In this document: positions 476 through 64,000 of the stretch, piece by piece
Position numbering within the stretch: the first letter of the stretch is position 1
Layout of the letters: each line of letters begins with the position of its first letter
Assembly: GCA_951406725.2 (NCBI GenBank)
Contig: OX597842.1
Coordinates: 17,050,001 to 17,114,000 of the forward strand
DNA: 64,000 bases
Source of the DNA: Octopus vulgaris
Lineage: Eukaryota
Direction: 5' to 3'
The notes under the pieces: model-generated
Told to the model about the DNA's origin: nothing
The model's database searches: none
What the model saw: the letters and a program-made list of their open reading frames with translations, nothing else
Program-made: the position numbers and the translations under genes

Positions 476-740
476 TTTTTATATTTATACACACATATAT
501 ATACATATATATATATATATACATGTATATATACACATATATATATATATATATATACTTGTATATATACATAGTCATATATACATACATATATATACAT
601 ATACATATATATGCATATACATATATATACATACATACATATATCTATAACTATATATACATATTAGTATATATATATCTACATATATATATACATTTAA
701 GTATATATATGTGTATATATATATGTATACATACATATAT

Positions 741-2852
741 CAGGCGCATCAAAAGACTCAACAAAAAAATCAACCAATTAAAATATTCCCACACGCAACA
801 TCCACATTCAACAACAATGAAAAGACTAGAGCTGGAAAAACTTCATCTGCAGACTAACATGAAAACCTCCATTGAAAATCAAAGAGCTGTGGAGGAACAA
901 TGGGTAATCAAAATCATCAAACAGAACCCAAAAGTGTTCTATTCTTATGCAAATAAGCATAGAACCACTGTCTCACCTATTGGGCCATTGATTGATGAAA
1001 ACGGCATTCCCCAACACGATGCTAAAGAAATGGCAGAAATACTGCAGAAACAATATTGCTCTGTCTTCAGTGTTCCCATTGATATTGATGTGAGGGAAAC
1101 GAACGAAGCTGACTCCCAACACAAAATCGCAGACATAACCTTCACTGCCACCGACATCGTAGCAGCAATAAATGAGGTCAAACATTACTCTGCTGTTGGC
1201 CCTGATAGATTTCCCGCCAGTCTCCTGAAGGAATGTAGATATCAACTTGCAGTCCCTCTGACCAACCTCTGGAGAAACTCGTTAGACGCAGGTTATATAC
1301 CGAAAAAGTTTCTATCCCAGTCGGTCATCCCGGTTTTCAAACAGGGAAACAGATCCCTCGCAGTCAACTATCGCCCAATCTCACTCACCTCCCACATCAT
1401 TAAAGTGTTTGAAAGAGTGTTAAGATCAAGGATAGCTGACTTCCTGGAGACCCACAAACTCCTAAATTCAAATCAGCATGGCTTTCGCTGTGGCAGGGAC
1501 TGTCTAACACAGCTCTTACACCACATTGAAGATGTACTCAAAGCCTTGGGAACAGGTTCGAACTCTGACGTCATATACCTTGACTTCAGTAAAGCATTCG
1601 ACAGGGTAGACCATAACATCCTACTCTCAAAATTGGCAAATGTTGGAATCCGTGGAAAAGTTCTACACTGGATTCAGTATTTCCTAGCGAATAGAACACA
1701 ACATGTTGTAGTTGATGGAGTCCACTCAAACCCAGCAAAAGTCACCAGCGGTGTTCCCCAGGGAACTGTTTTGGGTCCGCTACTCTTCATAATTTATGTA
1801 AACGACCTTTCCAGTGTCGTACATCACTGCAAAGTGAAAATATTCGCTGATGACACTAAGCTCCAGCAAATCGTCAATGAAGAAGCAGACCGAACTCAAC
1901 TCCAGTCTGACCTATATGCTGTGAGTCAATGGGCAGACAGAAACAAAATGCAACTGAATGAGGGAAAATTTGAGCTGATGCATTTTGGAAGAAATTCCTC
2001 ACTAAAACAACCATACTCTCTTCCTTCAGGGGAACCGCTCACAGCCTCTAACAATATCAGAGACCTGGGTGTAATTGTTGATGACGATCTCAGTTGGAGT
2101 ACACACATCAACAAGAAGGTCGATACAGCTCGTAGGATGAGTTCCTGGATCTTAAGAACTTTCCGGTCCAGAGAACAAGGTGTCATCATACCACTTTTTT
2201 CATCCTTTGTACGGCCACACCTTGAATACTGCTGCCCACTGTGGTCTCCTCACACAAGACAAAACATCTCAAGAATTGAGTCACCCCAGAGGGCTCTCAC
2301 TAAACAAATTGAAGGCATGGCTGCTCTCGACTATTGGGATCGTCTTAAAGCCTTGAAACTTTACTCCCTCCAGCGTCGCCGTGAGCGGTACATCATTTGT
2401 ACGATGTGGAAAATATACCGCCAACTTTGCCCAAACGACCTAAACATTAGCTTCAAGGTTCATCCGAGACTTGGACCACGGGCTATACGTCACCTGCCAA
2501 ATTCAATATCACAACATACATGTACACTGCAACATAATTTCTTTTCCTCAACAGGCCCTGCCCTATTTAACATTGTCCCGAGGGAGATCAAAGAGGAAAA
2601 GGATCCCAACAACTTCAAACAGAGTCTGGATAGATTCCTTCAAAGAATACCAGATAAGCCACCCATAATTGGATACAACTCACCCAACAAGAACTCACTA
2701 CTTGAACAAAACTGGATACAACTCACCCAACAAGAACTCACTACTTGAACAAAACTTGACTTAAACAGGATTCGAATAATCCTATCAGGTGGTGCTATTA
2801 AGTTAGACATGGCCTGGACCAATCTCTGGTCGAAACATATCTAAGTCTAAGT
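741..2852 (+). mobile_element. 5'-truncated CR1-type LINE inserted in a (TA)n tract
   Basis: RT ORF, short 3' UTR and (CTAAGT)2 tail; the TA-rich flanks rejoin the tandem-unit sequence. Confidence 0.93.
742..2748 (+). CDS. CR1-type ORF2 fragment: RT and C-terminal domain, no endonuclease
   Basis: Motifs [56 protein letters not shown]. The first ~73 aa of ORF 523..2748 are translated microsatellite. A 43-bp tandem duplication lies at 2670-2755. Confidence 0.92.
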
Positions 2853-3186: not shown

Positions 3187-4320
3187 ATAAATACACACAC
3201 ACATGTACACACACGCATACACATACAACAGTTGCTAATCACTATCCTAACACTTATTACCCTTTTTTCATATGTATTTCTTTATTTTAAATCTGTCTAT
3301 CTGCATGAAATTCTAAATCACAGAAAAAATCGAAATCAGAACGTTAAGTTTCAAGTTAGTGTAGAAAGGATAGTTGATCAATCGATCCATGATTTCTACA
3401 AATCCATCTCCGTCCTTTCCATTCTCATCGGAAGTGGAAAATGAAAATGGTAAACCGAGTATAATAAAAGCACAAGTGAGCTACAGTATTTTATATTATA
3501 GGATTATAAAAACAATTTCAGTAATTATCTCTCATTTCATTCTTAATATTATTAATTCACTTACCTTTAAGATTCATGACATTTACAGAGATCGTTAAGT
3601 AAACTTTAATTTTAGTTGCAAATTCGACCAACAAGACGTGTCCCACTACAAACAATAAGCTTCTGCCTTTTAATGTCCCCTTTTCCTAGTCTCGATAAAC
3701 AAGCTTTCTTTCATTTATTTCTATTCTCTTCGTTATGATAATTTAAGAATAAATTCAGGATATTTCACATTTGATTTCTTTTTGCATTGATTTCGTAAAG
3801 ACAAGGTCTTCAAAGCAATCTCTCCCGAGTTCTTTCACTCTTATAAAATCGATGGCCAACTTGAACTTTCTTTGCCTCTTACTCCTGAAGTCGTCGCCAG
3901 GTAATTTCACTTTCCGTTAAATAAATTCTTAAATTCCAGGTCTTATATTCGTTTGTCTTTCTCTCCAGAATGCTTTGCTCTTCAGAATGCTTTGCTCTTC
4001 GGAAGGTAAGTAAATTATCAGATTTAACCTTAGCTTTGCTATGTTCTCAACAGCAACTGTTTCTATCCATCGATCTTAGTAAATAAACCGCTTGAAAGAA
4101 GTCGACTGCGTTTGGATGCACGTTGAGCGAAACGATTTTACTTTAACTTGGCAATATATCGATAGCTTTAAATTTTTCATTATGCACTAGATAAATTATA
4201 CTTAATGCCATCGAAAGTGGTGTGGTCATCGAATATAAAGAAAGGAGTTAAACTTTTGATGAAATAAAGCCTTGATTAGGATTGAAATAATAATATTAAT
4301 ATTATTATTATTATTATTAA

Positions 4321-5336: not shown

Positions 5337-6455
5337 ATAAATACACACACACATGTACACACATGCATACACACACAAAAGGTAGCTAATCACTATCCTA
5401 ACACTTATTACCCTTTTTTCATATGTATTTCTTTATTTTAAATCTGTCTATCTGCATTAAATCATAAATCACAGCAAAATTCGAAATCAGAACGTTAAAT
5501 TTCAAGACAGAGTAGAAAGGATAGTTGATCAGTCGATCCATGATTTCTACAAATCCATCCCCGTCTTTTCCATTCTAATCGGAAGTGGAAAATGAAAATG
5601 GTAAACCGAGTATAATAAAAGCACAAGTGAGCTACAGTATTTTATATCATAGAATTATAAAACAATTTCAGTAATTATCTCTCTTTTCATTCTTAATAAT
5701 ATTAATTCACTTACCTTTAAGATTCATGACTATTACAGAGTTCGTTAAGTACACTTTACTTTTAGTTGCAAAATCGACCAACAAGACGTGTCTCACTGCA
5801 AACAATAAACTTCTGCCTTGTAACGTCCCCTTTTCCTAGTCTCGATAAACAAGCTTTCTTTTATTTATTCCTATTCTCTCCGTTCTGATAATTTAAGAAT
5901 AAATTCAGGATATTTCACATTTGATTTCTTTTTGCATTGATTTCGTAAAGACAATGTCTTTAAAGCAATCCCTCCCGAGTTCTTCCACTCTTATAAAATC
6001 GCTGGCCGACTTGAACTTTTTTTCTCTCTTACTCCAGAAGTCGTCACCAGGTAATTTCACTTTTCGTTAAATAAGTTCTTCAATTCCAGGTCTTATATTC
6101 GTTTGTCTTTCTCTCCAGAATGCTTTGCTCTTCAGAAGGTAAGTAAATTATCAGATTTAACCTTAGCTTTGCTATGTTTTCAACAGCAACTGTTTCTATC
6201 CATCGATCTTAGTAAATAAACCGCTTGAAAGAAGTCGACTGCGTTTGGATGCACGTTGAGCGAAACGATTTTACTTTAACTTGGCAATATATCGATAGCT
6301 TTAAATTTTTAATTATGCACTAGATAATTTATACTCAATGCCATCGAAGTGGTGTGGTCATCGAGTACAAAAAGGAGTAAAGCTTTTTATGAAATAAATC
6401 CTTGATTAGGATTGAAATACTATTATTATTATTACTATTATTTATATTATTAATA

Positions 6456-6604: not shown

Positions 6605-8755
6605 TTTTTCTTCTTTCAAATTTGCTTCCATTTCTTGCCGAGTGTCTTCCCGACTCCTAGGGCAAAGAAACTCACAGTATACATTGGTAGGCCATTAAAC
6701 CAAACTCAATAGTTCCTTCATTTTTTAATTTTTTTTTTTAAATTTAAATTAAAATACATGAGCAGCAACAGTTCTCACATCGACAATGCTCTTCTCAATA
6801 CGTGTGATATACCAGTTAAGACAATCTTTTGCACTTCTTGCAGGGATGGTAAGCCAGGGATCATTCTCATATAATTTTCGGTTCCCTTCTTGATCATTCC
6901 TAGTGCTCCTACGATCACTGGTATTGTAACCGCCTTGAGATACCACATTTTCTCAATTTCAATGAGTAGGTCTTTATATTTTCTGAGCTTGTCAAACTCT
7001 TTCGCTGAGATATTATGATCACAGGGGATGCTCATGTCGATCAATAAGCAAACTTTATTGTTTTGGTCTTTCACAACAATATCTGGTTTATTGGCCTTGA
7101 TTGTTCGGTCTGTATGTACTGGAAAGTCCCACCGAATGGTTACATTTTCTCCTTCAGTTACAGCCTCAGGGTGGTGATTATACCACTTGTCGGCAGTTTT
7201 GATATTGTAATGCCGACTTTTTAGCCAGTGTAGATATTGGCCAACTCTGTCATGTCTTAATTTATACTCCACTGGAGCTAAGACTTTACATCCAGAGATT
7301 AGGTGGTCCACTATTTCAATCATGTCGTTGCAGAATCGGCATTTTGGGTCTGCTCCATTTTTCATCACATTGGCCTGGTAGTTCCGGGTTAATAGGCTTT
7401 GATCTTGAGCAGCCAGGATGAAACCTTCGCTCTCTGCTTTTAGCCCTGAGCTCCGTAGCCACTGATGGGTTTGCTTCTGGTCAACATCTGCTTGTTTGCT
7501 GCGGGTCACATATTTGCCGTGCAGAGGTTTCTCCTCCCACCTATCAGCCAATTGCTCGTGCGCTTTTTTCGTTGCCATTATTTTCACCTTCTTTGCAACA
7601 ATAATTGCCGTACTTCCCTCGGGTTGTTCTGTTTGGGTATCCTGCACGAGATCAATAGCAAATGTTTTGCTTTCCTTTATGATAGAATGAAGCTTCTTTC
7701 GTCTCTCGTGATTTTCCACGAGCTTTAGCATCCAGTCATTCGATATTTCGAGATATTTGGCCAGTCCAATTGTGGTTGTTTTGTAAGCTAGTTCAAATTG
7801 GATCAGGCCTCGACCTCCTTGGGCTCTGGGAAGGTAAAGGCGATCTACGTCTGCCTTTGGGTGGTGCATCCTATTACAACTCGGCAGCTTGCGTATTTTC
7901 CTATCTATATTTTTTACTTCACTCATATTCCAGTTCAACACATTGTAGCTATAAGTAACAACTGGAACTGCTAAGGAATTTATAGCTAACACCTTGTTAC
8001 GTGCATTTAGTTCAGATTTCAGGACTGCACGAACTCTCCTATAACATTCCTTCCTGATCTTCTCTTTCATGCTTGCATGCTGAATACCAGAGCCTTCATT
8101 TATCCCTAAATATTTGTATGTTTGTTCTTGCTCAAGCTCTCTTATGACTGTGTCAACATCTAACACGACTGAATTTGTGATCTTCACTTTCCCTTTCTGG
8201 AAAGTGGCCTTGGCACACTTCTCAAGTCCAAACTCCATCCCGATGTCATCGCTGAATGCTTTCACAGTGCGCAATAGGCCTTCAAGTTCATTATTGTCTT
8301 TACCATAAAGTTTTAAGTCATCCATATAAAATAGATGGCTTATTTTTTTATTGGCAATTTTATACCCATACCCTGTTCTGTTTAATTCACTTGTAAGGGG
8401 TATTAGGGCTATGCAGAATATTAAAGGTGAAAGTGAGTCACCTTGAAAAATTCCACAGTTGATGTTTATATTTTCTGAGGCAAGTACTCCATTAGAGTGG
8501 TATAATTGGAGATTCGTATTCCACAACGACATATTGTGCTTCAGGAAGTTTGAAATCACAGGGGAAATTTTGAAGATGTCCAGCGATCTCAAGATCCATG
8601 GATGCGGTATACTGTCGAAGGCCTTTTTATAGTCAATCCATGCGGTGCTGAGATTTCTGCGCTTGTTGTAACAGTTCTCAAGGATCATACGATTGATTAG
8701 CAGTTGATCTTTGCATCCGTAAGAGCCTCGGCGGCACCTTTTTTTTCAATGGGAT
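6605..8755 (-). mobile_element. 5'-truncated R4/Dong-clade non-LTR retrotransposon inserted in (ATT)n
   Basis: RT plus restriction-like endonuclease ORF; (ATT)n on both sides, the known Dong target type. Confidence 0.92.
6775..8688 (-). CDS. RT, CCHC finger and restriction-like (PD-D/ExK) endonuclease of an R4/Dong element
   Basis: WIDYKKAFDS, GIFQGDSLSP, YMDD, CRFC..HLISGC, RHD, KPDIVV..LIDMSIP..KLRKY, HVLRRAL. Confidence 0.92.
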   Translation of the reverse strand: MILENCYNKRRNLSTAWIDYKKAFDSIPHPWILRSLDIFKISPVISNFLKHNMSLWNTNLQLYHSNGVLASENININCGIFQGDSLSPLIFCIALIPLTSELNRTGYGYKIANKKISHLFYMDDLKLYGKDNNELEGLLRTVKAFSDDIGMEFGLEKCAKATFQKGKVKITNSVVLDVDTVIRELEQEQTYKYLGINEGSGIQHASMKEKIRKECYRRVRAVLKSELNARNKVLAINSLAVPVVTYSYNVLNWNMSEVKNIDRKIRKLPSCNRMHHPKADVDRLYLPRAQGGRGLIQFELAYKTTTIGLAKYLEISNDWMLKLVENHERRKKLHSIIKESKTFAIDLVQDTQTEQPEGSTAIIVAKKVKIMATKKAHEQLADRWEEKPLHGKYVTRSKQADVDQKQTHQWLRSSGLKAESEGFILAAQDQSLLTRNYQANVMKNGADPKCRFCNDMIEIVDHLISGCKVLAPVEYKLRHDRVGQYLHWLKSRHYNIKTADKWYNHHPEAVTEGENVTIRWDFPVHTDRTIKANKPDIVVKDQNNKVCLLIDMSIPCDHNISAKEFDKLRKYKDLLIEIEKMWYLKAVTIPVIVGALGMIKKGTENYMRMIPGLPSLQEVQKIVLTGISHVLRRALSM

Positions 8756-9869: not shown

Positions 9870-10664
9870 TATATGTATATATATATGTATATACACATAT
9901 GTATACATACATATGATATACATATATATAAATATTTATATATATGTATGTGTATATATATATGTGTATATATAGATATCTCCCGAGTTCATCCACTCTT
10001 ATAAAAATTGGTGGCCAACTTGAACTTCAGAGGATCGTCGCCAGAAGTCGTCAACAGGTAATTTCACTTTTCGTTAAATAAGTTCTTAAATTCCAGATCT
10101 TATATTCGTTTTTTTTTCTCGCCAGAATGCTTTGCTCTTCAGAAAATAAGTAAATTATAAGTTTTACCCTTAGCTTCGTTTGGTTTTCAACAGCAACAGT
10201 TTCTATCCATCGATCTTAGCAAAGAAACCGCTTGAAACAAGTCGACTGCGTTTGTATACATTGTGAGCGAAACGATTTTATTTTAACTTGGCAATATATC
10301 GGTAGCTTTAAATTTTTAATTATGCACTAGATAAATTACACTTAATGCCCTCGAAAAAACTGTGGTCAATGAGTGCAGGACGAGAATCCAAATCTTTTTG
10401 AAATGAAGCCATGCTTTGGATAGGATTTCGATTTAAAGTAAACGTTGCCTAGATACCAAACTTGAGAAATTAGGCTTCTGAAAACCAGAAAGGACAAAGC
10501 TAATTTGAAGACTACAAATCTAATCCATCAGTGGAACTGTAAAAATCTGTAAACTTTCCAGAAGTTTATCATTTAAATATATATATAAACATGTCTAAAT
10601 ATGCAACTATATGCATGAGAAGACATACATAAAGTAAAATATACAATTCTACACATATACATAA

Positions 10665-12589: not shown

Positions 12590-15500
12590 ATCCATAAAAA
12601 TGTTCTAGCCCGAAGGCCGCGGCCACGCTGGGGCACCACCACTGAATGAGCTACACTAATATGTGAATCCACCTCTGATACGTGGCACTTGATCAACAAG
12701 GGAGTACGATGCTGCTGCCCGCATCTGCGTCTCCTGTCGTGAGGTAGGTTCATCTGGGACTCCCGACAAGAAGAGATCCAGTTTAGTTTTAAAGAAACCC
12801 ACATCCACACTATGTAAGTCTCTCAGGCATTTAGGGAGGATGTTAAAGAGCTTTGGTCCTCTGAAAACCAAGCTGTTGCAGTATCTGGATCTGTATTTTG
12901 ATGGTGATGTTGGAATCTTTGGCACCATGCAGTGGCGCCCCGTTCTGCGGGGGGGGGGGGGGTAACTTTGAATGCCAAAGTTTGGGACAAGACCCTCCAG
13001 GATTTTCCAGATGTATATCACTGCATATCTCCCCCGCCTCCGCTCCAGGGAGAAAAGGTTTAATACTTTCAGTCTTTCCCAGTAGCTGATATTTTGCATT
13101 GAGACGAGCTTTTTTATGTAGCTTCTCTGAATTGCTTCGAGTTCTGCTGTTAGTTTTATATTGTGTGGTGACCATAGTTGGGAGCAGTAGTCCAAGCGGC
13201 TGAGGACGAATGTTTTCCAGTGGACCATCAGTGTCTCCTCTCTTCTTCTGAAAGTTCGGAGAATCCATCAAGCTAGCCGTCTGCATTTTATCACCAGATT
13301 AGCAATATGCACTTGGAAAGATGCATCATTGCTCATGTCAGTGCCAAGGTCACGCACTGATTTTGACTCAGGGATTGCAATTATTCTTGGGCCAGTGTAT
13401 CCCAGTCTGCACGTCGTTTACCTTTGTGTGCCGATAGCGCAGGGCCTGGAACTTACCTGCATTAAACTGCATGTTGTTGTCCTCAGCCCACCTGTATATT
13501 GTATCCAACTCCTGTTGCAGATGCGCAATATTTTCAGGGTTTTGTATTGTGTGGGAGACTTTTGTGTCATCTGCATAGCTAGCAAGGGTGGCCATCGTAA
13601 CAACTGAAGGCATGTCTGAAAGGGCCACTATGAACAGCAGTGGCCCCAAGACAGTGCCCTGTGGAACACCGCTTGTTATTTATGTTTCCTTGGAGGTGGC
13701 TCCATTGCTCACAACTGCCTGTCTTCTGTCTTTTAGGAGTTTGTGCAGCCACTCTCCAAGTTTTCCGCCTAAGTCGAGATATATTACATCCACATTTGAG
13801 CCATTTAGTAGCTGTTTTAACACCCAGTCATAGTGTTGCAGGAGCTGTGTTAGGCAACTTCTACCTGATCGAAATCCATGCTGGGTGTCAGACAGCAAGT
13901 CATTTTCTTCAAGGAACCTGATTAGTTTCTTGCGGACTATTCGTTCCATGACTTTGCTGATGTGTGAGGTCAGAGAGATTGGCCTATAATTTTTAGCATC
14001 TGCTCTGCTACCTCCCTTATGGATAGGGCATATTACACCCTCTTTCAATTTGACTAGGAGCTTACCACTTGCAAGAAAGCTCTGAAAAAGAAGTTGTAGC
14101 GGTTTTGCAAGCGATCGTTTGCACGATTTGAGAAGGATCGCTGGAAATCCATCAGGTCCAGCAGCTGAGTTTGTGTCAATCTCATCTATGGCTAGTGTGA
14201 TATCATCATCTTCAATGTTGTTGTACTCAATTTTTGCCTCTTTGGCCGCAGGTAAAGTGGCAAAGAATTCTCCTGGGTTGTTTACTTGCCTGTGTCCTAG
14301 AGATGTAGTGAACACACTTTGGAATTGTTCGTTCAGTATTTCACATATCCTCGTGGGATTTCCTGTGAGAGAGCCATCTTTTTGGAAGAGAGGTCATATT
14401 CTCTGGTGCACTGAGGCTGACTCTTTGGCAAACTTAAAGAAAGCTTTAGGGTTTGATTTTATATTTTCTATTACCCAAGCTTTTTTATCTGCTCTCTCTC
14501 CTTTTCATGGGACTGATGCAAACTTTTTTCAATTTCCATTAGCATTCTTTCGAGCCGAGACTTCTCACCACATTTGGTGTGCTTGCTCAGGCGGTTCGCA
14601 ATCCTTGTCCGTCGTCTCATAAGAATCTTCCTTTCTCTAGGGATCCTGTTTTTGTTTTTGTGTGTGCTGGCCCTGCACACTGGGACATATTTGTCACACA
14701 TGGCTTGTATTATGGACATGAAGTGTTTGTGTTTCATATTAATGCCCGGTGTGGAGAGACATTTAGGCCAATCCTGTTTGAGGATCTCTTTCTCAATCAA
14801 CTTCCAGTTTGCTTTATGAAAGTTTAAGTTGGAGAGATAGTGGATGCTTTGTATAGGCTGTGTGTCTACGGGGGCTTTTCCTCCATACATAGACAGCTCT
14901 ATTATGTTGTGATCCGAGATCATTGTCGGCATCACTTTAACATTATGAATAATATCCATATTGCTTGTGAAGCAGAGATCCAGTATATTATCTGCCCTTG
15001 TTGGTTGCAGAACTATTTGCTCCATGAAAGAGGCATTTGTGAGATGGAGCAGGGACTCTGCCTGTGCCTGCTGATGGTGTGTCTTCACTGAGAGCATCTG
15101 CCCCCCAGGCCATTCCACATTGGGGAAGCTAATATCAGCCATGAAGAATACACTATTGTGTTGTTCAAGGTTGGTGAGGACATCTCTTTTTGTTTGGCAG
15201 TCTTCAAATATGCCTGAGTGATTTGGGGCATCTGGTGGGCGATATGTAGTGCATATGACGAAATTCAGTTGTCTTATATGTACAATTTGAGTGTCACACA
15301 CTGAGTTTGGATATGACAACAGGACCTGGGCGTGAGGTCATCTCGGATGTACATTGCAACTCCACCATGACTCCTCCCATTTCTATTTGAGCGTATGACT
15401 GTATATTGCGGCATGTGTATTTCTGCATCCCTTATATCGGGTCCAAGATGCATTTCTGTGAGTGCCATACATATAGCTTGATTGCATGTCACAAGGTCTC

Positions 15501-17184: not shown

Positions 17185-17566
17185 AGTTACTCTCTTTACT
17201 CTTTACTCTTTTACTTGTTTCAGTCATTTGACTGCGGCCATGCTGAAGCACCGCCTTTAGTCGAGCAAATCGACCCCGGGACTTATTCTTTGTAAGCCCA
17301 GTATTTATTCTATCGGTCTCTTTTGCCGAACCGCTAAGTGACGGGGACGTAAACCCACCAGCATCGGTTGTCAAGCAATGCTAGGGGGACAAACACACAC
17401 ACATACATATATATATATACATATACGACAGGCTTCTTTCAGTTTCCGTCTACCAAATCCACTCACAAGGCATTGGTCGGCCCGGGGCTATAGCAGAAGA
17501 CACTTGCCCAAGATGCCACGCAGTGGGACTGAACCCGGAGCCATGTTGTTGGTTAGCAAGCTACTT
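17185..17566 (-). mobile_element. tRNA-derived SINE, body and 3' part; its 5' head is displaced to 19618-19653
   Basis: B box GGTTCAGTCC and body gcaccttgggcaagtgtcttc...gacggaaactgaaagaagc; same family as 63702-63860. Confidence 0.9.
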
Positions 17567-19617
17567 TATTTCAAAACATTTGCTATAAAGGCAGTACACA
17601 GATTAAGTTAGCTTTGCGGGCTGGACGAGGACATTAATGAAGTGAATGATAATGAAAGACAGATGATAAGGATGGGAGAAGACAAAAAGCGCCCGCCGAC
17701 TTTCGCTTCTCTAAAACATTGTTCTTTTTAAAGATAAACACAAAACGAGGTATTAAACCTCTTACAATTTTTCCAATTTTTGGACTTAGCAGTCCATTAT
17801 TAATACAAATGCAAGACGAGGTATTAAACCTCTTTCAACTTTTCAATTTTTAGACTTAGAAGTCCATTATTAATACTAACAGTTCAATAATTACATATCG
17901 TCCTCGAAATAGCTTGTGCCCGCGCCCTCCACCATCAAACACGCCTCCCTCAGAACGTAATCAAGTTCCGAGTTCGCGTCGCCCGGGACCAAGCTATAAT
18001 CTTCATTGAGCTCCTTTAGCCCAAGCGTCACGTCGAACGCCACGGCCTCCACAGCTATCTGCGGAGGCCATTCGGGGTCCTGTGTGAAGGCTAAAGGTGC
18101 TCCCTTGTGGTACTCTTCCATCATTTTTTTTTTCAATTTCTCCTCCTCTATAGAAGAGGACCAATACGTTCAGTTCTTTCGTTGGCGGCACAGTTCCCGC
18201 CAACGTCTGCGGCTCATGGATATCAGCCGCCCGACCTCTCTTTCTTTTTCTCCTCCTTCTTTTTGGGGAGACTGCTGACCCAGGGGACTCCGTCACCAGA
18301 CACGGGGGATCGCTATCCCCCTCCGCCACCTGAGTGTTCTTTGGCGAGCAACCATTGTTGCTCACCTGTCTCTTTCTTTTCGTGGAGGCAACCTCCTCCA
18401 CGACTTCCACCGTCTCCCCCTCCAATGAGGGGGCGGCGGGCGCCTTTTCCCCTTCATGCTCCGGGGCACCACCACGGCCCCCAGGACAATTCCTCTTGAT
18501 ATGTCCGGGCTTCAGGCACAGGTGACACTTGGGGGGGGCGTCCCTCGAGTATCACCGAGTACCTGTGCCCAGCCATTCTCAGGAAGTCCGGGAATTTCAT
18601 TTCTCCCACGGCCACCGGTGTCCACAGGGTCAAAGTTGCCTTTGACCCCTCCCAGGCGACCGCGGGAGCCATTTTCACACTCAGTAGCCTGGGTCCGCTA
18701 TCCCCCAGGCCTCGCCGGATGGTCTTCTCGATCCATTCCGCCTCCGTGCCCGGGGGCAGCCCACAAACCCAGGTTCTTTTTACTTTTCTGCCACAATACG
18801 AGGGGAGGAACAAAATTTCCTCTCCCTCCAGTGGCTCGCTAGCAAATCTGCTAGCTTCCTCGGGGGTACCAAACAGCAACCACACCGTTGCAAATTTAGT
18901 CCCCCGAGAAATAAACTTTATCGTTAGTAGGTGGTCCCCCAACTCTTTCTCTATGGTGCTCCTGTCGAAGAGGGCGATAGCTCCACGCGACCTAGAATAG
19001 GTTCGTAGGACCACCGTCCTCTTCTCAAGACTTTCAATCCACTGCTTGGGTGGGACAACCTCCCATTCCAAAGCAGTGGTTTCTTTTGTTGCCATGATTT
19101 TGAAAAAAGTTCAACTAAAAGTTCAAAGTCCAATAAGAAAAAAACACAATGACAGAACAGAAAGACAGAGCAGAGAAAATGACGAAGGAAGACAGTTCAA
19201 ATAATGGCAACACAGTTCTGCAACTGGGAATCCTCACGAAACAGGGTACTCCTAGTTGCAGCACACTTGGTTCTCCGTGGTAAATCCAAGCACAATTGGT
19301 TCTCCGTGGTAAATCCAAGCGAACAAATTAATTTTTGAGGAGGGGCTATGCCTCCTTAAAATACACAATTCTCACTAAAAGGTGAGACAATAAATACGCC
19401 AACAGGCAGAACAAATACATCCGAAGCAAAGTGAAGCTTATTACTCGCAGAAAAGTGTTAACACTAATTAATATTAATGCCAAAAAAGTATTAACGGCAA
19501 GCAATAAACCTCACTATGCTTCCAAAAATATCCAAAATGTCCTACCTGTTGCAGTAAAATGTTCAATAATTCACGTTAACACGTGACATTTGCAGGAGCG
19601 AAAAAAAACGCGTCCGC
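17567..19617 (-). mobile_element. ORF1-only non-autonomous retroelement (HAL1/Tx1-like), copy A, inserted in a SINE head
   Basis: 18-bp TSD with 2 mismatches (17549-17566 / 19618-19635); single gag-like ORF; ends at AATAAA; homologous to 45744-47993. Confidence 0.85.
17891..19095 (-). pseudogene. ORF1/gag-like protein (~400 aa) with CX2CX4HX4C knuckle and acidic C-terminal domain; two homopolymer frameshifts
   Basis: ORFs 18454..19095, 18003..18425 and 17891..18136 join if the G8 run (18531-18538) and T-run (~18125-18133) are corrected; this restores EGRPPKCHLCLKPGHIKRNCP. Confidence 0.82.
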
Positions 19618-19653
19618 TTGGTGAGAAAGCTACTTACCACACAGCCACTCCTT
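19618..19653 (-). mobile_element. Displaced 5' head (A box) of the interrupted SINE
   Basis: Reverse complement AGGAGTGGCTGTGTGGTAAGTAGCTTTCTCACCAA. Confidence 0.88.
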
Positions 19654-34241: not shown

Positions 34242-35441
34242 TAATAATAAAAATAATAATATTAATAATAATAACAATAATAATAATAATATTATTTCAA
34301 TCCTAATGAAGGCTTTATTTCATAAAAAGTTTTACTCCTTTCTTTTACTCGATGACCACACCACTTTCGATGGCATTGAGTATAAATTATCTAGTGCATA
34401 ATTAAAAATTTAAAGCTATCGATATATTGCCAAGTTAAAATAAAATCGTTTCGCTCACCATGCATCCAAACGCAGTAGACTTCTTTCAAGCGGTTTATTT
34501 ACTAAGATCGATGGTTAGAAACAGTTGCTGTTGAAAACCTAACAAAACTACGGCTATAACTGATAATTTACTTATCTTCTGAAGAGCAAAGCATTCTGGA
34601 GAGAAAGAGAAACGAATATAAGACCTGGAATTTAAGAACTTATTTAACGAAAAGTGAAATTACTTGGTGACGGCTTCTGGAGTAAGAAAGAAAAAAGTTC
34701 AAGTTGGCCAGCGATTTTATAAGAGTGGAAGAACTCGGGAGGGATTGCTTTAAAGACATTGTCTTTACGAAATCAATGCAAAAAGAAATCAACTGTGAAA
34801 TATCCTGAATTTATTCTTAAATTATCAGAACGGAGGGAATAGGAATAAATAAAAGTTAGCTTGTTTATCGAGACTAGGAAAAGGGGACGTTAAAAGACAG
34901 AAGCTTATTGTTTGCAGTGGGACACGTCTTGTTGGTCGATTTTGCAACTAAAAGTAAAGTTTACTTAACGATCTATGTAAATGTCATGAATCTTAAAAGT
35001 AAGTGAATTAATAATATTAAGAATGAAAAGAGAGATAATTACTGAATTTGTTTTTATTATTCTATGATGTAAAATATTGTAGCTGACTTGTGCTTTTATT
35101 ACACTCGGTTTAACATTTTCATTTTCCACTTCCGATGAGAATGGAAAGGACGGAGATGGATTTGTAGAAATCATGGATCGATTGATCAACTATCCTTTCT
35201 ACTCTGTCTTGAAACTTAACGTTCTACTTTCCAATTTTGCTGTGATTTATAATTTAATGCAGATAGACAGATTTAAAATAAAGAAATATATATGAAAAAA
35301 GGGTAATAAGTGTTAGAATAGTGATTAGCAACTGTTGTGTGTGTATGCGTGTCTGTACATGTGTTAGTTAGTTAGTTAATTTGGCTCAAAAGAAAATAGC
35401 AAGGCCATGTAGGGGACATGGAGTTAAGTACAGGGTGGTGT

Positions 35442-38309
35442 TTATGTAAAGAGTTCAGGCCACTTGAGGTCCAGGGAGGCTTTGAACAAAGCGGTCGTCG
35501 GCATCTTCACCATCTCGTCTGGCAGCTTGTTCCACGGATCCGCAACCCGGACGGAGAAAGCTCCTCTTCTTCGATTGGGATTAAATCGTCGCAGGTAGAG
35601 CTTTTCGGAATGACCCCGCAGCCGACGCTCTGGAGCAGGAGTGAAGAACAGCTCTTTCGAGAGGTTACACTTTCCGCTTATGATGTTGTGGGCGAGAATG
35701 AGATCACCACGGCGGCGGCGTTTTTCAAGAGAATAAAGGTCGAGTGTCCTCAGCCTTTCTTCGTAGGACAAATTTTTGAGACCATGAACCATGCGGGTAG
35801 CCAGCTTCTGGACTCTTTCGAGATGCTGTATGTCTTTGAGGAGATAAGGAGAAGAGGCATGAATCCCATACTCCAATATGGGTCTCACCAGCGTGACATA
35901 GAGTGGTAGGAATATGGCTGCTGTGAGCATTCCGAATGACCGTCAAATCAAGAACAGAATTCCGCGTGCTTTGTTGGCAGCATGGACGCACTGGGCCGAA
36001 GGCGAAAAGGAGGAATCTACCAAGATACCCAGGTCCTTTACCTGATCGGTCCTCTCCAGCAGCAGACGACCCGGCTCGAAATCAAGTTGAGTTGCTGGAG
36101 TAGAGCCGATAGGCAGATGACAGCACTTTGACACGTTCAGACGCAGGTCGCAATCGTTAGACCACTTCCAAATTTGGTGGAGGCATCGACGAAGATCCTC
36201 TATATTACCGCGAGGAGCGACCAGTTTGATATCGTCGGCAAATAGAAGGGTGTGTTGCGTGAGGTCGTCGAGCAAGTCATTTATGAAGACTAAGAACAAC
36301 AAGGGCCCAAGCACTGAACCTTGAGGCACGCCACTGCTCGCACTGGAGACGTCGGACCGCGAACCATTAACTTGGACTTGGAAGGAGCGATCTGAGAGGA
36401 AGGCACCAACCCATCGTACAATATCCGGATGGAAACTATATGCTTGAAGCTTGACAAGTAATAGGCTGTGGTTTACCGAGTCAAAAGCTTTGGCAAAGTC
36501 CAATAAAACGATGTCAACAGCATCACTATCATCGAGGATGCGCGTCACCAATTCTTCCATTACTAGAAAGTTGGTCAAGCATGATCTCTTCGGCACGAAG
36601 CCGTGTTGGGAATCAGAGATAGAGGCTGTGTTTAGGAGGTGGAGCGTCATACTTTTCTTAAGGATGGTTTCGAACATCTTGCTGATTATTGATGTAAGGG
36701 AAACCGGTCGGTAGTTAAGCGGGTCTTCGCGGCTCTCTTTCTTGAAAATTGGGCAGATTATCGCTGTTCTCCAGTCTGCAGGTATAACACCCGTCGCCAA
36801 TGACATATTGAATAGTCGTGTTAAGGGCTCGCAGATGACCGGAGCCAACGCTTTGATAACCCGTGGGTGTATGCCGTCAGGGCCGTGACCCTTGTTGACA
36901 TCGAGGCCTTGAATAACACGTTTGACTTCGTCCCGCGTGTTGACCAATCGAAGCATTGGAGGTACCGATCTATCAAATGGAGGGGGTTCACGACCATCAT
37001 CTTGTTTGAAAATAGTTGAAAAAGCCTCGGCAAATAATTGACTCTGTTGATAAGGGTCCTCAATCGATACGCCTGTTGAGTCTACCAACGTTGCAATCTG
37101 GTTGTTCAAGCGGGAATTCCGCTGGACATGGGCAAAGAAGGTTTTTGGATTGCTACTGGCATTTGCCGCGATTTTGTATTCATAACTGAAGCGTTCTTTC
37201 TTTTCAATTTTCACGGCTCGGTCTCGTTGAGTTTTGTACACCTCAAAAGCTGCAGTCGAATCCAGATTTTTGAATTCAGCCCAAGCAATATCTCTGAGTC
37301 GACGTTCTCGTTTAACCTTCTTCGTCACCCAGGGCTTGTGTTTCTTCCTCTTGGGAAGCCCAACGGGAACTGCCTGGTCAGTCAAACAGATTACATATGC
37401 TTTGAGGGATGACCATAGTTCGTCAACTGAGGACAACGTCATCAGGGATCGCCAGTCCAGAAGCGCGGAAGCCTCGGTTAGAATTTCAAGATTAATTGCA
37501 GAGAAGACTCTACGTGGCAGCGAAGTAGTCGTGGGCGTAGAAAAAGTTGTGTGCATGACGAACTTCAGGACCGCATGATCACTCTTGGCAAGAGGGGCGC
37601 ACACAGATACGTCTGACACTGATCTTGGATAGCGGGAGAATACCAGATCTAGCATAGATGGCTGCTGCCCAGACCGATGCCTTGTCGGATATTCAACATG
37701 TTGCGATAGAAAACAATCTTCAGCCACGTCAAGAAGGGCCTGGCCGAACCGGGAAGATATTGTACAAATTGATGCGGGCCAATCGATCGTGGGAGCGTTG
37801 AAGTCTCCTAGTACCAAACAGTCATGCGAAGCTGAAACGAATCTTATCGCTTCGAGTAAATGAGCATCGTCCTGGGGGTCGGCAAGAGGCGGCCTGTAGA
37901 CAGCCAACACGGGCAGGCAAAACTCAGATAGGCTCAGCTTGCAATAGACGGCATCGAATTTTGTTGTAGGTTGAGCATTAGTGGGTAGAATACCGCTGGA
38001 CGGTTTGTGCTCAGACTTAACATACACAGCAACACCTCCACATCTGAAAAGGATGTAGCCCTGCAGGTGGATTTCTGAGTCCTTTACTGCTGGAGTCAGC
38101 CAAGTCTCGGTGATAGCTATCACATCAGGGGAGTCACGTATGGCCAGTGTAAATAGTTCACTGAACTTTGGGAATAAGGAGCACAAGTTGGTGTAGACGA
38201 TGCTGAGCTGTGAAGTCTGATGGACGGGAGTTGGGGAACAAGCAGAATAAGGGGCATCAGAGATAGCATCGTTGACGGGGGTATCAACTTCACTTCGATT
38301 TGCCCTCAC
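35442..38309 (-). pseudogene. LINE ORF2 (APE endonuclease + RT) with one in-frame TGA at 35943-35945
   Basis: ITETWL, VYRPP, LGDFN, LDLVF..SDH, NYRPVSLTS, DFAKAFD, GVPQGSVLGP, FADD; ORFs 35943..38309 and 35442..35930 are in frame (FLI*RSFGML). Confidence 0.92.
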
Positions 38310-39475
38310 ATCACTTTCCCTGTCAGCACTACAGCGTGGGACCAGAGGTAGGACTTGATTATCTGTCCATCTTGGATTCGTAAACCCTTCTCTCCCATTT
38401 GTTTCCTCGTCTTTAGTTCGGATATTAGGTTTCTCCGGCGAATTCTCTCTCTTAGTGAGTATTCCTCGCGAAAACCCATATTGGGGTCCTCCCAGGCATG
38501 CGTCTGAGCTCTGTTCAGAAAGACTGAAGCCTCCCGATCGGAAGAAAAGATTACCCTTATTGGGCGTGGTCTAGTATCTGAGGTTGGGTTCGCTTGGAAT
38601 CTTCCTAGCCGAGCGACCTTATGGACACTGACATTTTCGTTCACAGAGAACAATTCTCCAACTAAAATGGAAACAAAATTAATGTCATCTTTTAGGCGGT
38701 TTATGCCTGTATCACAGGTGGATTCAGCTTTACCATAAATTATTGCTGATCTTGAGTGGGCAAAATTTTCTCTACTATGAGCTGCAGTATTCGATTCTTC
38801 ATTGGAAGATTTCGAAAGGGTGGTTTCATAGCCATCGGACTTATGTCGGCCTGTGGGGTCGATCGGAATGGGTTTAGTGGTCATAATTTTCCCGCCTGGT
38901 TTGGAACTGCACTGCCTCTTCTTCGGTTTGGAGGAACACCACTCCCCAGATGAACTCACATCGAGATCGTTCAGAATTGGTTGAGCAATGGCATTAATAG
39001 GAAGGACAAGTGAGGGAGAATCCAAACAGATTTTATCGTGATCAGGTTTCATAGCTAAATCTGCCCCACTGGAGTTTTGACTACGTTTCTTCTTTTGGGG
39101 AGAACAACGGTCTTCAGGTGGGTTTGAGTCTACGCTCCTCAAATTAGGTTGGGGAACCTCCGGGACCGAAAAGGCAGATGAGGAAGAATCCGCACAGGAA
39201 CGATCATGTGCAGAAACGACCGCCGGTTCCTTCGCCTTCTTTGGCCGCTTCGATTTTGTTCCCTTCGGTTTGGACGTCTCCAGGGAAGAAATCAAGGGTG
39301 ACTCTGCGTCAACAGGAGACTGTTTATTCAGTAAAAGAGCAACAACAGACTTTAGGTGCTCGACCTCTTGTTTGAGCAACAGCAACTGCTCGTTGAGCTG
39401 ACTATTGGTAGGACCATCATCTTGATGAGAAGCCCTTCTTGCAGATCTCAGTTTCGATCCGTAGGTAGCTGACAT
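38306..39475 (-). CDS. LINE ORF1 (N-terminal coiled coil, disordered middle, RRM/L1-ORF1-like C-terminus)
   Basis: 389-aa ORF abutting ORF2; heptad LNEQLLLLKQEVEHLKSVV; ARLGR..RPRPIRVIF motif typical of CR1/L2 ORF1. Confidence 0.85.
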   Translation of the reverse strand: MSATYGSKLRSARRASHQDDGPTNSQLNEQLLLLKQEVEHLKSVVALLLNKQSPVDAESPLISSLETSKPKGTKSKRPKKAKEPAVVSAHDRSCADSSSSAFSVPEVPQPNLRSVDSNPPEDRCSPQKKKRSQNSSGADLAMKPDHDKICLDSPSLVLPINAIAQPILNDLDVSSSGEWCSSKPKKRQCSSKPGGKIMTTKPIPIDPTGRHKSDGYETTLSKSSNEESNTAAHSRENFAHSRSAIIYGKAESTCDTGINRLKDDINFVSILVGELFSVNENVSVHKVARLGRFQANPTSDTRPRPIRVIFSSDREASVFLNRAQTHAWEDPNMGFREEYSLRERIRRRNLISELKTRKQMGEKGLRIQDGQIIKSYLWSHAVVLTGKVM

Positions 39476-45706: not shown

Positions 45707-45743
45707 GGCGTAGGAGTTGCTGTGTGGTAAGTAGCTTGCTAAC
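45707..45743 (+). mobile_element. 5' head (A box) of the interrupted tRNA-derived SINE
   Basis: GGCGTAGGAGTTGCTGTGTGGTAAGTAGCTTGCTAAC. Confidence 0.88.
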
Positions 45744-47993
45744 GCACATGCGCAGTTAGTCAGTTGCTTCCTGTTCAGCCAGAGTGGACGCGAGTCAACC
45801 AGCCCCGTCCAATTAAAGAAAAAAGACCAAAAACGGAAAGTTGTCGAGGTAAGTGATTTTGTTTATTGTGAGTTGGGCATAATTTATTGCGTGCCAATTA
45901 TTATTTCAGTAAGTTGTGTCCAACTCTGAGACAATCTCGCCTGCTCTCGGCGGCTGCCGTTTTTGTGTTCATTGAAAAAAAAAGAAAAAACAGTGGAGGG
46001 GCGTATCCTCGAAATTCAATACAGTTACTGTTAAAATTACCGTTGGCGGTAGCCAGTGCTGTGTTTGGGTTTGTTGAATTTATTCCCTTGTCAGAGTACT
46101 TCGCAAGAAAATTATAAAAATAAGCCACTATTGGATTACCTTTCGGACCCATTTTTGTGGAGGTTGTGTTGCAGTTGCGGCGTTCCAGGTTCAACCCAGG
46201 CCGGGAGTACCGCAAGGCCAGAATATTTTTGCTGTGTTTTTTCTGTTTATTAACTTTCTTTTGAACTTCATTTAACCCCCCTTTTGTTTTTTTTCCTTAT
46301 TGCGACTTTCCGTTGATTTCTTCCCTTCTGTTGTGCTTTCTCCCTTTTGTTTTTTTCAAAAATCTATCAAATTTTATTTGGACTTTTGAACTTTTTTCTT
46401 CCTGCTTTTTGAGTTTAATTTGAATATATTTAAAAAAAACATGGCAATGAAAAATAACAAAATTTTGGAGTGGGAAATCATACCACCTAAAAAGTGGTTA
46501 AAAGACCGTGAAGATAGGACGGTGGTGTTGAGAACCTACTCCAAGGCACTCGACACCATCGCCCTATTCGAAAAGACGGCAATTGAGGAGGAGTTGGAAG
46601 AGTATTTGCCAACAATTAAATTCATTTCCAGGGGTGTCAAATATGCAACGGTGTGGTTGCTATTTGACACCCCTGAAGAGGCTTGCAAATTTGCTAGCAA
46701 ACCCCTGGAGGGTAAGGAAATCTTATTCCTGCCCACGTACAAAAAAAGAAATTGATGAAAGCTTGGATTTGCGGACTGCCACCCGACATAGAACCCGAGT
46801 GGATAGAGGAGACTATCCGCCGGGGTCTGGGTGACAGCGAAACTAAGCTCCTCAATGTAAAAGTTCTTCCTGCGGCTGCTTGGGTTGGGTCAAAAGCAAT
46901 TTTGACCCTGTGGACCCAATCAGCCAATCTGGTTCTTCCAGATTTTTTGAAAATGGCCGGGTGCAGGTACCCGGTGATGCTTGAGGGTCGCCCCCCTAAG
47001 TGTCATCGGTGCTTGGAGTCCGGCCACATAAAGAAGAACTGTCCTCGGGGACAAAATAGGATCCCGGAACAGTTAAGTAAAACCCCTCTAGAAGAGGGAA
47101 CGATAACGGCCGAGAAAGCAGAGGACTCCTCAAACAGAGGCCGAAAGAGGAAGGTGAGCAACAATGGGTGCTCACCAAAGGATAATAGGGATGAGGAGAG
47201 GAAGGCGAATCTTCCAGCCACGGAGGAGACGCACCCTCCCTCAGTTGAAAAGGGGAAAAAAAGAGAAAGAGGAAGAAAAACGGGACGTTACCGGCTGTCA
47301 GTGTAGCACCGGAATGTCCAGGAACTACGTCGGTTGGGGTTGTGCCACCGACAAGAGAAGGAATACCGTTGGCGGGAACTGTGCCGCCAACGAAAGAACT
47401 GAACGTATTGGTCCTCTTCTATAGAGGAGGAGAAATTGAAAAAGTGATGGAAGAGCACTACAAGGGAGCACCTTTAGCCTTCACACAGGACCCCGAATGG
47501 CCTCCGCAGGTAGCTGTGGAGGCCGTGGCGTTCGACGTCACGCTTGGGCTAAAGGAGCTCAATGAAGATTATAACTTGGTCCCGGGCGACGCGAACTCGG
47601 AACTTGATTACGTTCTGAGGGAGGCGTGGTTGATGGTGGAGGGCGCGGGCACAAGCTATTTCGAGGACGATATGTAATTATTGAACTGTTATTATTAGTA
47701 ATGGACTCAAGTCCAAAAATTGAAAAATTGTAAGAGGATTAATACCTCATTTTGTATTAATAATGGACTGCTAAGTCCAAAAATTGGAAAAATTGTAAGA
47801 GGTTTAATACCTCGTTTTGTGTTTATCTTTAAAAAGAACAATGTTTTAGAGAAGCGAAAGTCGGCGGGCGCTTTTTATCTTCTCCCATCCTTATCATCTT
47901 TCTTTCATTATCATTCACCTCATTAATGTCCTCGTCCAGCCCGCAAAGCTAACTTAATCTGTGTACTGCCTTTATGGCAAATGTTTTGAAATA
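45744..47993 (+). mobile_element. ORF1-only non-autonomous retroelement (HAL1/Tx1-like), copy B, inserted in a SINE head
   Basis: 15-bp TSD with 1 mismatch (45729-45743 / 47994-48008); single gag-like ORF; 3' end TGAAATAAA identical to copy A. Confidence 0.85.
46441..47677 (+). pseudogene. ORF1/gag-like protein (~410 aa) with CCHC zinc knuckle, frameshifted
   Basis: ORFs 46420..46755, 46752..47306 and 47342..47677 are colinear with copy A; EGRPPKCHRCLESGHIKKNCP. Confidence 0.82.
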
Positions 47994-48151
47994 AAGTAGC
48001 TTGCTTACCAACCTCATGGTTCCGGGTTCAATCCCACTGCGTGACACCTTGGGCAAGTGTCTTCTGCTATACCTCGGGCCAACTATAGCCTTGTGAGTGG
48101 ATTTGGTAGACGGAAACTGAAAGAATCCCTTCGTGTATATGTATATATATA

Positions 48152-48780: not shown

Positions 48781-48785
<5 letters not shown>

Positions 48786-49110
48786 GAAATGAAGAAAATG
48801 CTGACAAAATAATTTAAGTAAGGGAGAGTGTATTTAATTAGGCGAAAGTTCTTTTTACCGGTTGCGCATTTGTTATGCTTATCAAAAGATATTTTTTTAA
48901 GAGAGATAGAATTCCTTTCTGATAGAATTTTTTTTCTCTTATCTCCAGATAAGACAAAAAAATCTATCAGAAAGGAACTCTATCTCTCTTAAAAATATAT
49001 ATTTTGATAAGCATAACAAATGCGCAACCAGTAAAAAGAACTTTCACCTAATTAAATACACTCTCCCTCACTTAAATTATTTTGTCAGCATTTTCTACAT
49101 TTCCTTTTTT
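48781..49110. repeat. ~330-bp near-perfect palindrome (fold-back) within a (TA)n context
   Basis: Arms of ~165 bp, centre tcttatct-cc-agataaga at ~48945. Confidence 0.95.
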
Positions 49111-62762: not shown

Positions 62763-63700
62763 GCTGTGAGAAATCCTTTACTCGGAAATCAAATCTTGTT
62801 ATTCACAAAAGACCTCACACACTAGAACGCCTTTGACTTTTTGAAGTTTGTGGGAAATACTTTATTTCTGATGATAATTTAAACAAACGAATCCATGTTT
62901 AACAGATGTTAATTTATGTTTAATTTATGTTAGTTTAAGTTTAATAAATGTTAATTTATGCTCCAAACACCAGCTGAATAGGGACAAAGATATTTTACTA
63001 AATGATTCCTTATTTTCAAAATTAATTGAAACAAAGACAGTGTTCATCAACAGAATATGGTAATGAAAGGGTTAAAGTGATCTAAATGAAAACATTTCCT
63101 TAAAATTTCATAATATTTTATGTTCGAAACATCAACTTCATAATGAAAAAAGTTATTTTATTCAAATCTTTAATATTTTCAAAATTAATTGAAAGAAAGG
63201 GCAACAGAAATATGGTAAGAAAAGGGTTCAAAAATAAACCTTCCATCAAAATTTCAAGTTAGTTTGTTGAGAAAACGAGAGAGTGAAGGAGGAAAGTGGA
63301 AGGTAAAAGGGTCCTTCATCAGAAAATGTTTCAATTTAAAAGCATCTCTCTGATGTGTCTTTGTCTGTGAATGACTAAAGTACTGATTTCATGAATGATT
63401 TCCTGCAAATCTCACAGCAAAATGTTGGAAATACTTTATTTCTGATGGAAATTTAAACAGACACAAACGAATCTACACTGGCTAAAAATCCTATCCGTGT
63501 CAGACATGTGGGAAGTGATTCTCGGCTAAATCTCATTTGGTTATTCATATCCGAAGTCAGACACGAGAAAACCCATATCTTTGTGACGTATGTAGGAAAT
63601 CGTTGGTTTCTGTCAGTTACTTAAACAGACACAAATTGATACACGCCGGAGAAAAATCATTTCGTTGTGAAATTTGCGGTAAATCTTTTCTTGACAAGTC
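62762..63700 (+). pseudogene. Degenerate C2H2 zinc-finger array (segments 62762-62900 and 63415-63700) interrupted by repeats
   Basis: CEKSFTRKSNLVIHKRPHT; YPCQTCGK*FSAKSHLVIHIR; CDVCRKS..HKLIHAGEKSFRCEICGKSF, with stops and a frameshift. Confidence 0.8.
62945..63270 (+). repeat. Two tandem copies of an AT-rich repeat; the first ends AAAGGGTTAA (piggyBac-like terminus)
   Basis: ttttcaaaattaattgaaa...aatatggtaa..aaagggtt occurs twice. Confidence 0.5.
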
Positions 63701-63701
63701 A

Positions 63702-63860
63702 TAGGAGTGGCTGTGTGGTAAGTAGCTTGCTTGAACACTACAGCGTTCCAGGTTCAGTCCCACTGCGTGGAACCTTGGGCTGGTGTTTTTTACTATAGCC
63801 TCGGGCCGACCAGAGCCTTGTGAGTTGATTTGGTAGACGGAAACTGAAAGAAGCCCGTCT

Positions 63861-63908
<48 letters not shown>

Positions 63909-64000
63909 GACAGACAGAGAGAGAGAGATAGGTACAGGAGTGGCTGTGTGGTAAGTAGCTTGCTTACCAACCACAAGGTTCCAGCTTCATTCCCACTGCG
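63702..64000 (+). mobile_element. Two uninterrupted copies of the target SINE (63702-63860 and 63930 to window end)
   Basis: GGAGTGGCTGTGTGGTAAGTAGCTTGCTT(ACCAACCAC) runs straight into the B box, i.e. empty target sites. Confidence 0.9.

Follow-up and report, generated by a model that had tools for sequence, protein, structure and literature searches.

Two mosaic copies of an ORF1-only LINE-like element inserted at one SINE position in Octopus vulgaris

The 64,000-nt stretch of Octopus vulgaris DNA analyzed here (contig OX597842.1, positions 17,050,001 to 17,114,000; hereafter the window, in whose own coordinates all positions are given) is animal DNA rich in microsatellites and contains several reverse-transcriptase ORFs. 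It raises the question of how two LINE-like copies, A and B, came to interrupt a SINE at the same nucleotide, and whether an element that encodes only ORF1 supplies its own ORF1 protein. Copy A is a real feature, an independent insertion, and one of two mosaic copies that have a young 3′ module in common; what its ORF1 does for it is weighed below.

The two insertions and their host SINE

Copy A occupies 17567–19617 on the minus strand, i.e., 2051 nt between its TSDs (Table 1). The interval 17549..19653 given to it in the earlier note holds at its boundaries except that the end at 19653 takes in 18 nt of SINE head past the TSD. Copy A is an ORF1-only, non-autonomous LINE-like element whose ORF of about 400 codons starts at 19095, stops at 17891, and is broken by two frameshifts (near 18531 and 18125), each within a homopolymer run. 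In a scan of both elements, stop-free frames reached at most 218 codons, so that no frame of A or B could hold ORF2. Tandem duplications of 29 nt (19260–19317) and about 70 nt (17741–17879) lie inside the 5′ and 3′ UTRs, respectively, and the 3′ UTR terminates in AATAAA, the last two A's overlapping the target, with no poly(A) tail. Copy A looks like a dead full-length copy. Copy B (45744–47993, plus strand, 2250 nt) carries two frameshifts of its own.

Table 1 Features of copies A and B and of the sequence around them (window coordinates)
Feature	Positions	Strand	Evidence or remark
Host SINE head upstream of A, with A-box-like motif	19636..19653	-	Matches B's head and the uninterrupted heads
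5′ TSD copy of A, 18 nt, 16/18 match	19618..19635	-	Direct-repeat comparison
5′ UTR of A (522 nt), with no relation to that of B	19096..19617	-	
ORF1 N-terminal part of A, two predicted RRM-fold domains	18541..19095	-	Structure model, Foldseek, VIA-align
Single CCHC zinc knuckle of A, in the next frame after the frameshift near 18531	18482..18529	-	Translation
ORF1 linker of A, basic/acidic, poorly conserved	18208..18481	-	dN/dS 0.43, 44 alignable codons
ORF1 C-terminal ~100 codons and stop of A; start of the 3′ module common with B	17891..18207	-	95/100 residues identical
3′ UTR of A	17567..17890	-	
3′ TSD copy of A	17549..17566	-	Partner of 19618–19635
Remaining host SINE of A: B-box-like motif, body, microsatellite, tail	17195..17548	-	~88% identical to B's host
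5′ TSD of B, 15 nt	45729..45743	+	Partner 47994–48008
5′ part of B: 697-nt 5′ UTR unlike A's, divergent ORF1 (ATG 46441, frameshifted)	45744..47365	+	
Junction scar of B: diverged motif copy, then A-identical copy 39 nt later in frame	47327..47404	+	
A-type 3′ module of B	47366..47993	+	96.7% identical to A

Placed against two uninterrupted SINE heads, A and B begin and end at the identical SINE nucleotide. The site comes a single base after the A-box-like motif, and about 31 nt separate it from the B-box-like motif that follows; both labels are assigned from the box consensus. The uninterrupted heads stand in tandem within 63700–64000 (with positions given as 63703 and 63936 or as 63720 and 63953) and represent empty target sites. 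Both element copies in the window (2/2) thus sit at the same SINE base, and both come from one 3′ lineage. The 3′ junction is identical in A and B, AATAAA running directly into the target, and both copies show the TPRT signature of TSDs (16/18 in A, 14/15 in B) and a precise 3′ end. The 18-bp TSD that the earlier note had ascribed to A therefore exists as an 18-nt direct repeat, although it is imperfect. The host repeat, by far the deepest-covered part in all four public runs examined, would be a tRNA-type SINE, judging from its box-like motifs and extreme depth; ARAGORN returned 0 tRNA genes in it and Rfam no tRNA match (four sub-threshold Rfam matches were disregarded).

Could A and B descend from a single insertion through local segmental (inverted) duplication? 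They are in inverted orientation at the same SINE position, in a window rich in duplicated 2.75-kb units. Against such a duplication, the 5′ UTRs and the TSD lengths differ, the host SINEs are only about 88% identical (147/166 and 171/194), and nothing aligns between A and B beyond the SINEs except pieces of a shared array and of other repeats, wrongly oriented for an inverted duplication. The two hosts are 85.5% and 82.8% identical to the SINE copy at 63720, and so are no closer to each other than ordinary copies are. Because the flanks beyond the SINEs do not align, we rejected segmental duplication of one insertion, which the flank tests contradict and to which we give next to no chance. 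The earlier claims that A arose by a separate insertion event (own TSD, different host-SINE flanks, different 5′ UTR), and not as a product of local inverted duplication, are borne out by these comparisons, which show the flanks to be non-paralogous.

The surroundings are themselves repetitive. A tandem array of ~2.75-kb units extends over 20480–45160, with A and B on either side; its unit comprises a 1.04-kb segment (90–98% alike among units), a second SINE-like repeat, microsatellites, and a 554-nt segment (96–98% alike). Inverted copies of the 1.04-kb segment lie to the left of A (3231–4285, 5378–6419, and 9980–10435), and a ~325-nt inverted repeat, 93% self-complementary, lies directly to the right of B's host SINE (48782–49107). 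The array is interrupted by a LINE at 35418–39475 (minus strand). Its reverse-transcriptase ORF, at 35943–37655, matches RVT_1 (E = 1e-32), and a 389-aa ORF upstream has no Pfam match. More LINE pieces occur at 523–2748 (plus), 6775–8688 (minus), and 12656–15142 (minus), the first two with RVT_1 matches; none of the three has a nucleotide match to A or B.

A common 3′ module with different 5′ parts

The two copies are related very differently along their length. The 5′ UTRs were said to be largely different, and they are, with only short matches between them, the best of 26 nt; a recount likewise returned 65 identical residues among the first 100 of ORF1, as had been estimated by hand. Upstream of position 18207 in A (47366 in B), 576 of 865 aligned nucleotides are identical (66.6%), whereas downstream of it the 3′ module (A 18207–17567, B 47366–47993) is identical at 608/629, with 19–21 substitutions. 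The breakpoint is sharp (Fisher test, P about 1e-53). The last 100 ORF1 codons, which belong to the module, have dS = 0.015 between A and B. The description of A as a separate subfamily is consequently right for the 5′ two-thirds only and does not hold for the 3′ third, which A has in common with B. At the breakpoint, B has two copies of a motif that are 23/39 identical to each other, and A has one copy only. Given the abrupt jump in identity and the 39-nt in-frame overlap, B looks, at the level of sequence, like a template-switch chimera in which an A-type tail carries a 5′ part of foreign origin.

A gene conversion or crossover (inversion) between two fully divergent insertions might instead have created the common 3′ third afterwards. 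A and B are inverted and 28 kb apart, and the 5′ TSD of B agrees with the 3′ TSD of A at 15/15 positions, above the 14/15 within B's own pair. The mismatches within TSD pairs (3/33) are also somewhat more than the divergence of the module predicts (P about 0.08), but swapping the TSD partners lowers them only from 3 to 2 of 33. The near-identity, however, stops at the element boundary in spite of homologous SINE flanks: the module is identical at 608/629 and the first 60 nt of the SINE at 53/60 (P = 0.007), and the comparison with the whole SINE flank gives P = 1e-6. Moreover, an overlap at the junction is unlike homologous exchange, the orientation of the flanks shows no sign of an inversion at A or B, and the allele that B's module carries is common in other runs. 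At position 18124, B's allele accounts for 3608/3904 of the summed depth in run X3, 492/512 in X5, and 129/142 in X12 (0/2413 in X1); since it is the major allele in three of the four runs, B's tail need not derive from A itself. The end of near-identity at the element boundary, together with this allele, makes conversion from A less likely, and we consider a later exchange distinctly unlikely.

The frameshifts in homopolymers are a hint of long-read error, and the repeat-rich region could have been misassembled to yield B's mosaic. Such an artefact, however, would not be expected to leave a TSD pair that matches across the junction at 14/15, a module with its own 19–21 substitutions relative to A, and an overlap that is an inexact repeat; we consider it very unlikely. 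One further comparison speaks against so simple a history: in X5, the match of a contig that is 87% like A breaks off exactly at 18207, so A itself may also be a chimera.

Part of the element was present in 20 of the 24 public runs listed (9 studies), of which four (X1, X3, X5, and X12) were examined, all as contigs placed on A, the contig depth not being a copy number. Summed depth decreased from the 3′ end through ORF1 and the 5′ UTR to the flanks, a gradient that fits a multi-copy, 5′-truncating family with a common tail. Contigs 97–98% identical to A's 5′ UTR occurred in X3, X5, and X12; in X5, contigs 97–99.5% like A over the 5′ UTR and ORF had a depth of 104–255 (flank: 29–36), and in X3 a near-identical element contig reached a depth of 1622 (flank: 65–204). 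In X1 and X3, joints from 17805/17799 to 17881 also link the end of ORF1 to the distal 3′ UTR through a single 70-nt unit, not two, so that A and B are not alone in having the ORF1-only join. Among the listed pieces of the four runs, none spans the whole element, either of its junctions, or the breakpoint of B. A metagenome scan returned three matches, all in contigs of 70% GC, which we take as chance because only a 21-nt pattern was matched, and 0 of 146 stretches was confirmed in viral contigs.

The ORF1 protein and selection on it

The N-terminal part of ORF1 was modeled from an alignment of 34 rows, consisting of A's 185-residue segment, 30 of 32 hits, and three cluster members; P0008 (an unrelated repeat protein) and P0009 (a fused gene model) were left out. 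The model reached pLDDT 81.5 and pTM 0.63, whereas the single-sequence fold (pLDDT 36) was unusable. Foldseek returned 49 matches at E ≤ 0.001, with tandem-RRM proteins on top. VIA-align gave modest Z scores, 8.8 for residues 14–103 against the La RRM (rmsd 2.7, 83 aligned) and about 7.9 for residues 103–185 against RRM-type domains. As modeled, ORF1 of A is thus composed of two RRM folds followed by a CCHC knuckle, the layout of a type I ORF1p. In Pfam, A's ORF1 had no RRM match; B's knuckle matched zf-CCHC with E = 0.0028, under the curated cut-off, zf-CCHC was matched in 7 of 34 family members, and Transposase_22 was absent among the 25 families listed for these 34.

Octopus sinensis supplies the closest protein, a gene model with 65% identity over A's first 185 residues, and 7 of the 10 relatives checked (of 32 hits) are named proteins of O. 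sinensis, O. vulgaris, or O. bimaculoides. The proteins P0001–P0035 form a diverse RRM-RRM-CCHC family with 21–65% identity to A, and the named ones, octopus models that are uncharacterized or carry unrelated names, are likely to be retrotransposon ORF1s. P0009, an O. sinensis gene model, has a B-like ORF1 N-terminus fused to an integrase domain; the fusion is probably a chimeric annotation, and the N-terminus indicates that B-type 5′ parts exist elsewhere. Among 785 candidates there was no longer relative of A's N-terminal part, which is weak evidence, and an Atlas search with this part returned arthropod clusters without names, in one of which 18% of the members have RRM_1, as a lead only. 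A PDB sequence search with ORF1 returned zinc-knuckle matches only. The C-terminal 100 residues had no relative among 338 candidates; this module had Atlas matches all under 0.9 (low recognition) and no alignment to P0006. Our searches found no sequence link between A's ORF1 and any named Tx1 ORF1.

The earlier note had proposed that ORF1 stayed under purifying selection, and the RRM-RRM-CCHC core agrees: between the two ORF1 lineages, 190 codons give dN = 0.20, dS = 1.69, and dN/dS = 0.12, with dS near saturation (bootstrap range 0.06–0.21, 460 of 500 resamples usable). It does not follow that A supplies its own ORF1p as a chaperone and borrows only ORF2, as had also been suggested, because what diverged between A and B are two ORF1 lineages, and either could have evolved in an autonomous element. 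Nor is purifying selection proof of a requirement in the ORF1-only form, as the donor of B's 5′ part could be autonomous and A's form a recent ORF2 deletion. The suggestion is plausible and unproven, and autonomous parents may account for the low dN/dS.

This leads to the reading that ORF1 is baggage, i.e., that A and B result from a recent ORF2 deletion in an autonomous target-specific LINE, move as internally deleted elements do, with both proteins in trans, and reflect selection in their autonomous parents. Both copies are frameshifted, and the shared module does not have a dN/dS below 1 (1.4, from one synonymous and five non-synonymous changes, too few to decide). When we classified 16 ORF variants, from 40 of 225 variant rows, eight of those listed were private to A, and six of these eight are non-synonymous, which looks neutral; seven of the eight listed as segregating are non-synonymous, all seven in the linker. 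In contrast, B's chimeric junction stays in frame (1 in 3 by chance), and other contigs have frame-preserving lengths at both of A's homopolymers, that at 18531 included, as well as frame-breaking ones. A 282-nt X12 contig bears on both sides of the argument: it matches the end of ORF1 at 153/156, and its 126 letters past the stop, unplaced in the listed rows, could be an ORF1-ORF2 junction, and hence a lead to the autonomous partner, or a variant of the 3′ UTR. We regard ORF1 as baggage as a real contender that falls somewhat short of an even chance, and for the opposite claim, that the ORF1-only form requires ORF1p in cis, we see the chances as about balanced.

A proposed mechanism and its known parallels

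With moderate confidence we favor the reading that A is one full-length copy, now dead, of a SINE-targeting, ORF1-only LINE derivative that exists in multiple copies and has a HAL1-like layout, and that B is an independent template-switch insertion. The element RNA would be reverse-transcribed by ORF2p supplied by an autonomous partner. The endonuclease of this partner would nick the SINE head just past the A-box-like motif, with priming through the two A's common to the AATAAA end and the target and a second-strand nick that varies between 15 and 18 nt downstream. B would then have been inserted independently, with the same 3′ end but with 5′ two-thirds taken from another, diverged ORF1 lineage; the simplest route is a template switch that left the 39-nt in-frame overlap. 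Since B carries the same 3′ end with a foreign 5′ part, the 3′ module would set partner and target, and the 5′ UTR and ORF1 would be exchangeable. With its boxes pushed 2 kb apart, the promoter of the interrupted SINE copy should be disabled. The autonomous partner was not found in the window, and A and B had no blastn match to its four LINE-bearing stretches. PMC13282606 reports 13 recently active L1-Tx1 families with 421 insertions in O. vulgaris, which makes a candidate partner plausible.

A bolder version holds that a long-lived ORF1-only octopus lineage repeatedly grafts new 5′ UTR/ORF1 cassettes onto one 3′ module, needs its own ORF1p, and inserts between the A and B boxes of a very abundant SINE as a safe harbor, disabling every copy it uses, so that one parasite would live on another; we think this rather unlikely. 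If the favored reading were true genome-wide, SINEs would join the list of safe-harbor targets, and the element would offer a natural test of the cis action of ORF1p in an element without ORF2, and of the idea that the 3′ module is sufficient to dictate partner and target. The 'uncharacterized' octopus gene models would also be explained as retrotransposon ORF1.

HAL1 elements end in a 3′ poly(A) tail, which both octopus copies lack, and the octopus target is apparently fixed. HAL1 is a non-autonomous LINE derivative of several origins that encodes only ORF1p (PMC5753468), and the ORF1p of mammalian L1 is of type II, with coiled coil, RRM, and CTD (PMC5203782). The octopus element resembles HAL1 in having the ORF1 gene alone, without ORF2, but HAL1 derives from mammalian L1 with its type II ORF1p, and the octopus protein is RRM-RRM-CCHC. 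The element thus works like HAL1 but is not HAL1 proper, having neither a type II ORF1p nor a poly(A) tail.

Type I ORF1p is tied to Tx1-clade elements in non-mammalian animals and to other groups too (PMC5203782), so that the type I ORF1p of the octopus element is consistent with the Tx1 clade and not diagnostic of it. The element is probably of Tx1-clade origin; membership in that clade is defined by how an APE-RT ORF2 groups in an RT tree, and A and B carry no ORF2. Target-specific Tx1-clade LINEs (Tx1L in Tx1D, Keno in U2, Kibi and Koshi in microsatellites, and the crocodilian Tx1-Mar in Mariner-N4) use a fixed site in multicopy sequence, including other transposons, as the octopus element may do, judging from two copies; it differs in the lack of ORF2 and in its target, the head of a probable tRNA-type SINE, a sequence missing from the targets described in the accessible part of PMC4494074.

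Two further groups of elements share single features with it. R2 SIDE and the R2/R1 hybrid SIDE are non-autonomous and site-specific, with hybrid 5′/3′ structure and template jumps (PMC3414825), and in these and in SINEU-3 the 3′ end determines partner and target (PMC3414825, PMC4494074), as proposed here; these elements carry no ORF, however, and the octopus element keeps about 400 codons. Dada DNA transposons, often at the A box, and the NeSL-related LIN15/LIN25 and NeSL-1_TV target tRNA genes (PMC8869645, PMC4640811), and hence also tRNA-like sequence, but they are other element classes, and the octopus element sits in a SINE just after an A-box-like motif. The available part of PMC9115989 describes only RTE elements. 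In the literature searched (outside Repbase and, for the target, most subscription papers), we found neither a SINE head as a LINE target nor an ORF1-only or mosaic element matching the octopus one. ORF1-only derivatives, Tx1-type targeting of repeats, and template-switch chimeras are each known already; what appears to be new, as read from two copies, is their combination with a SINE-head target.
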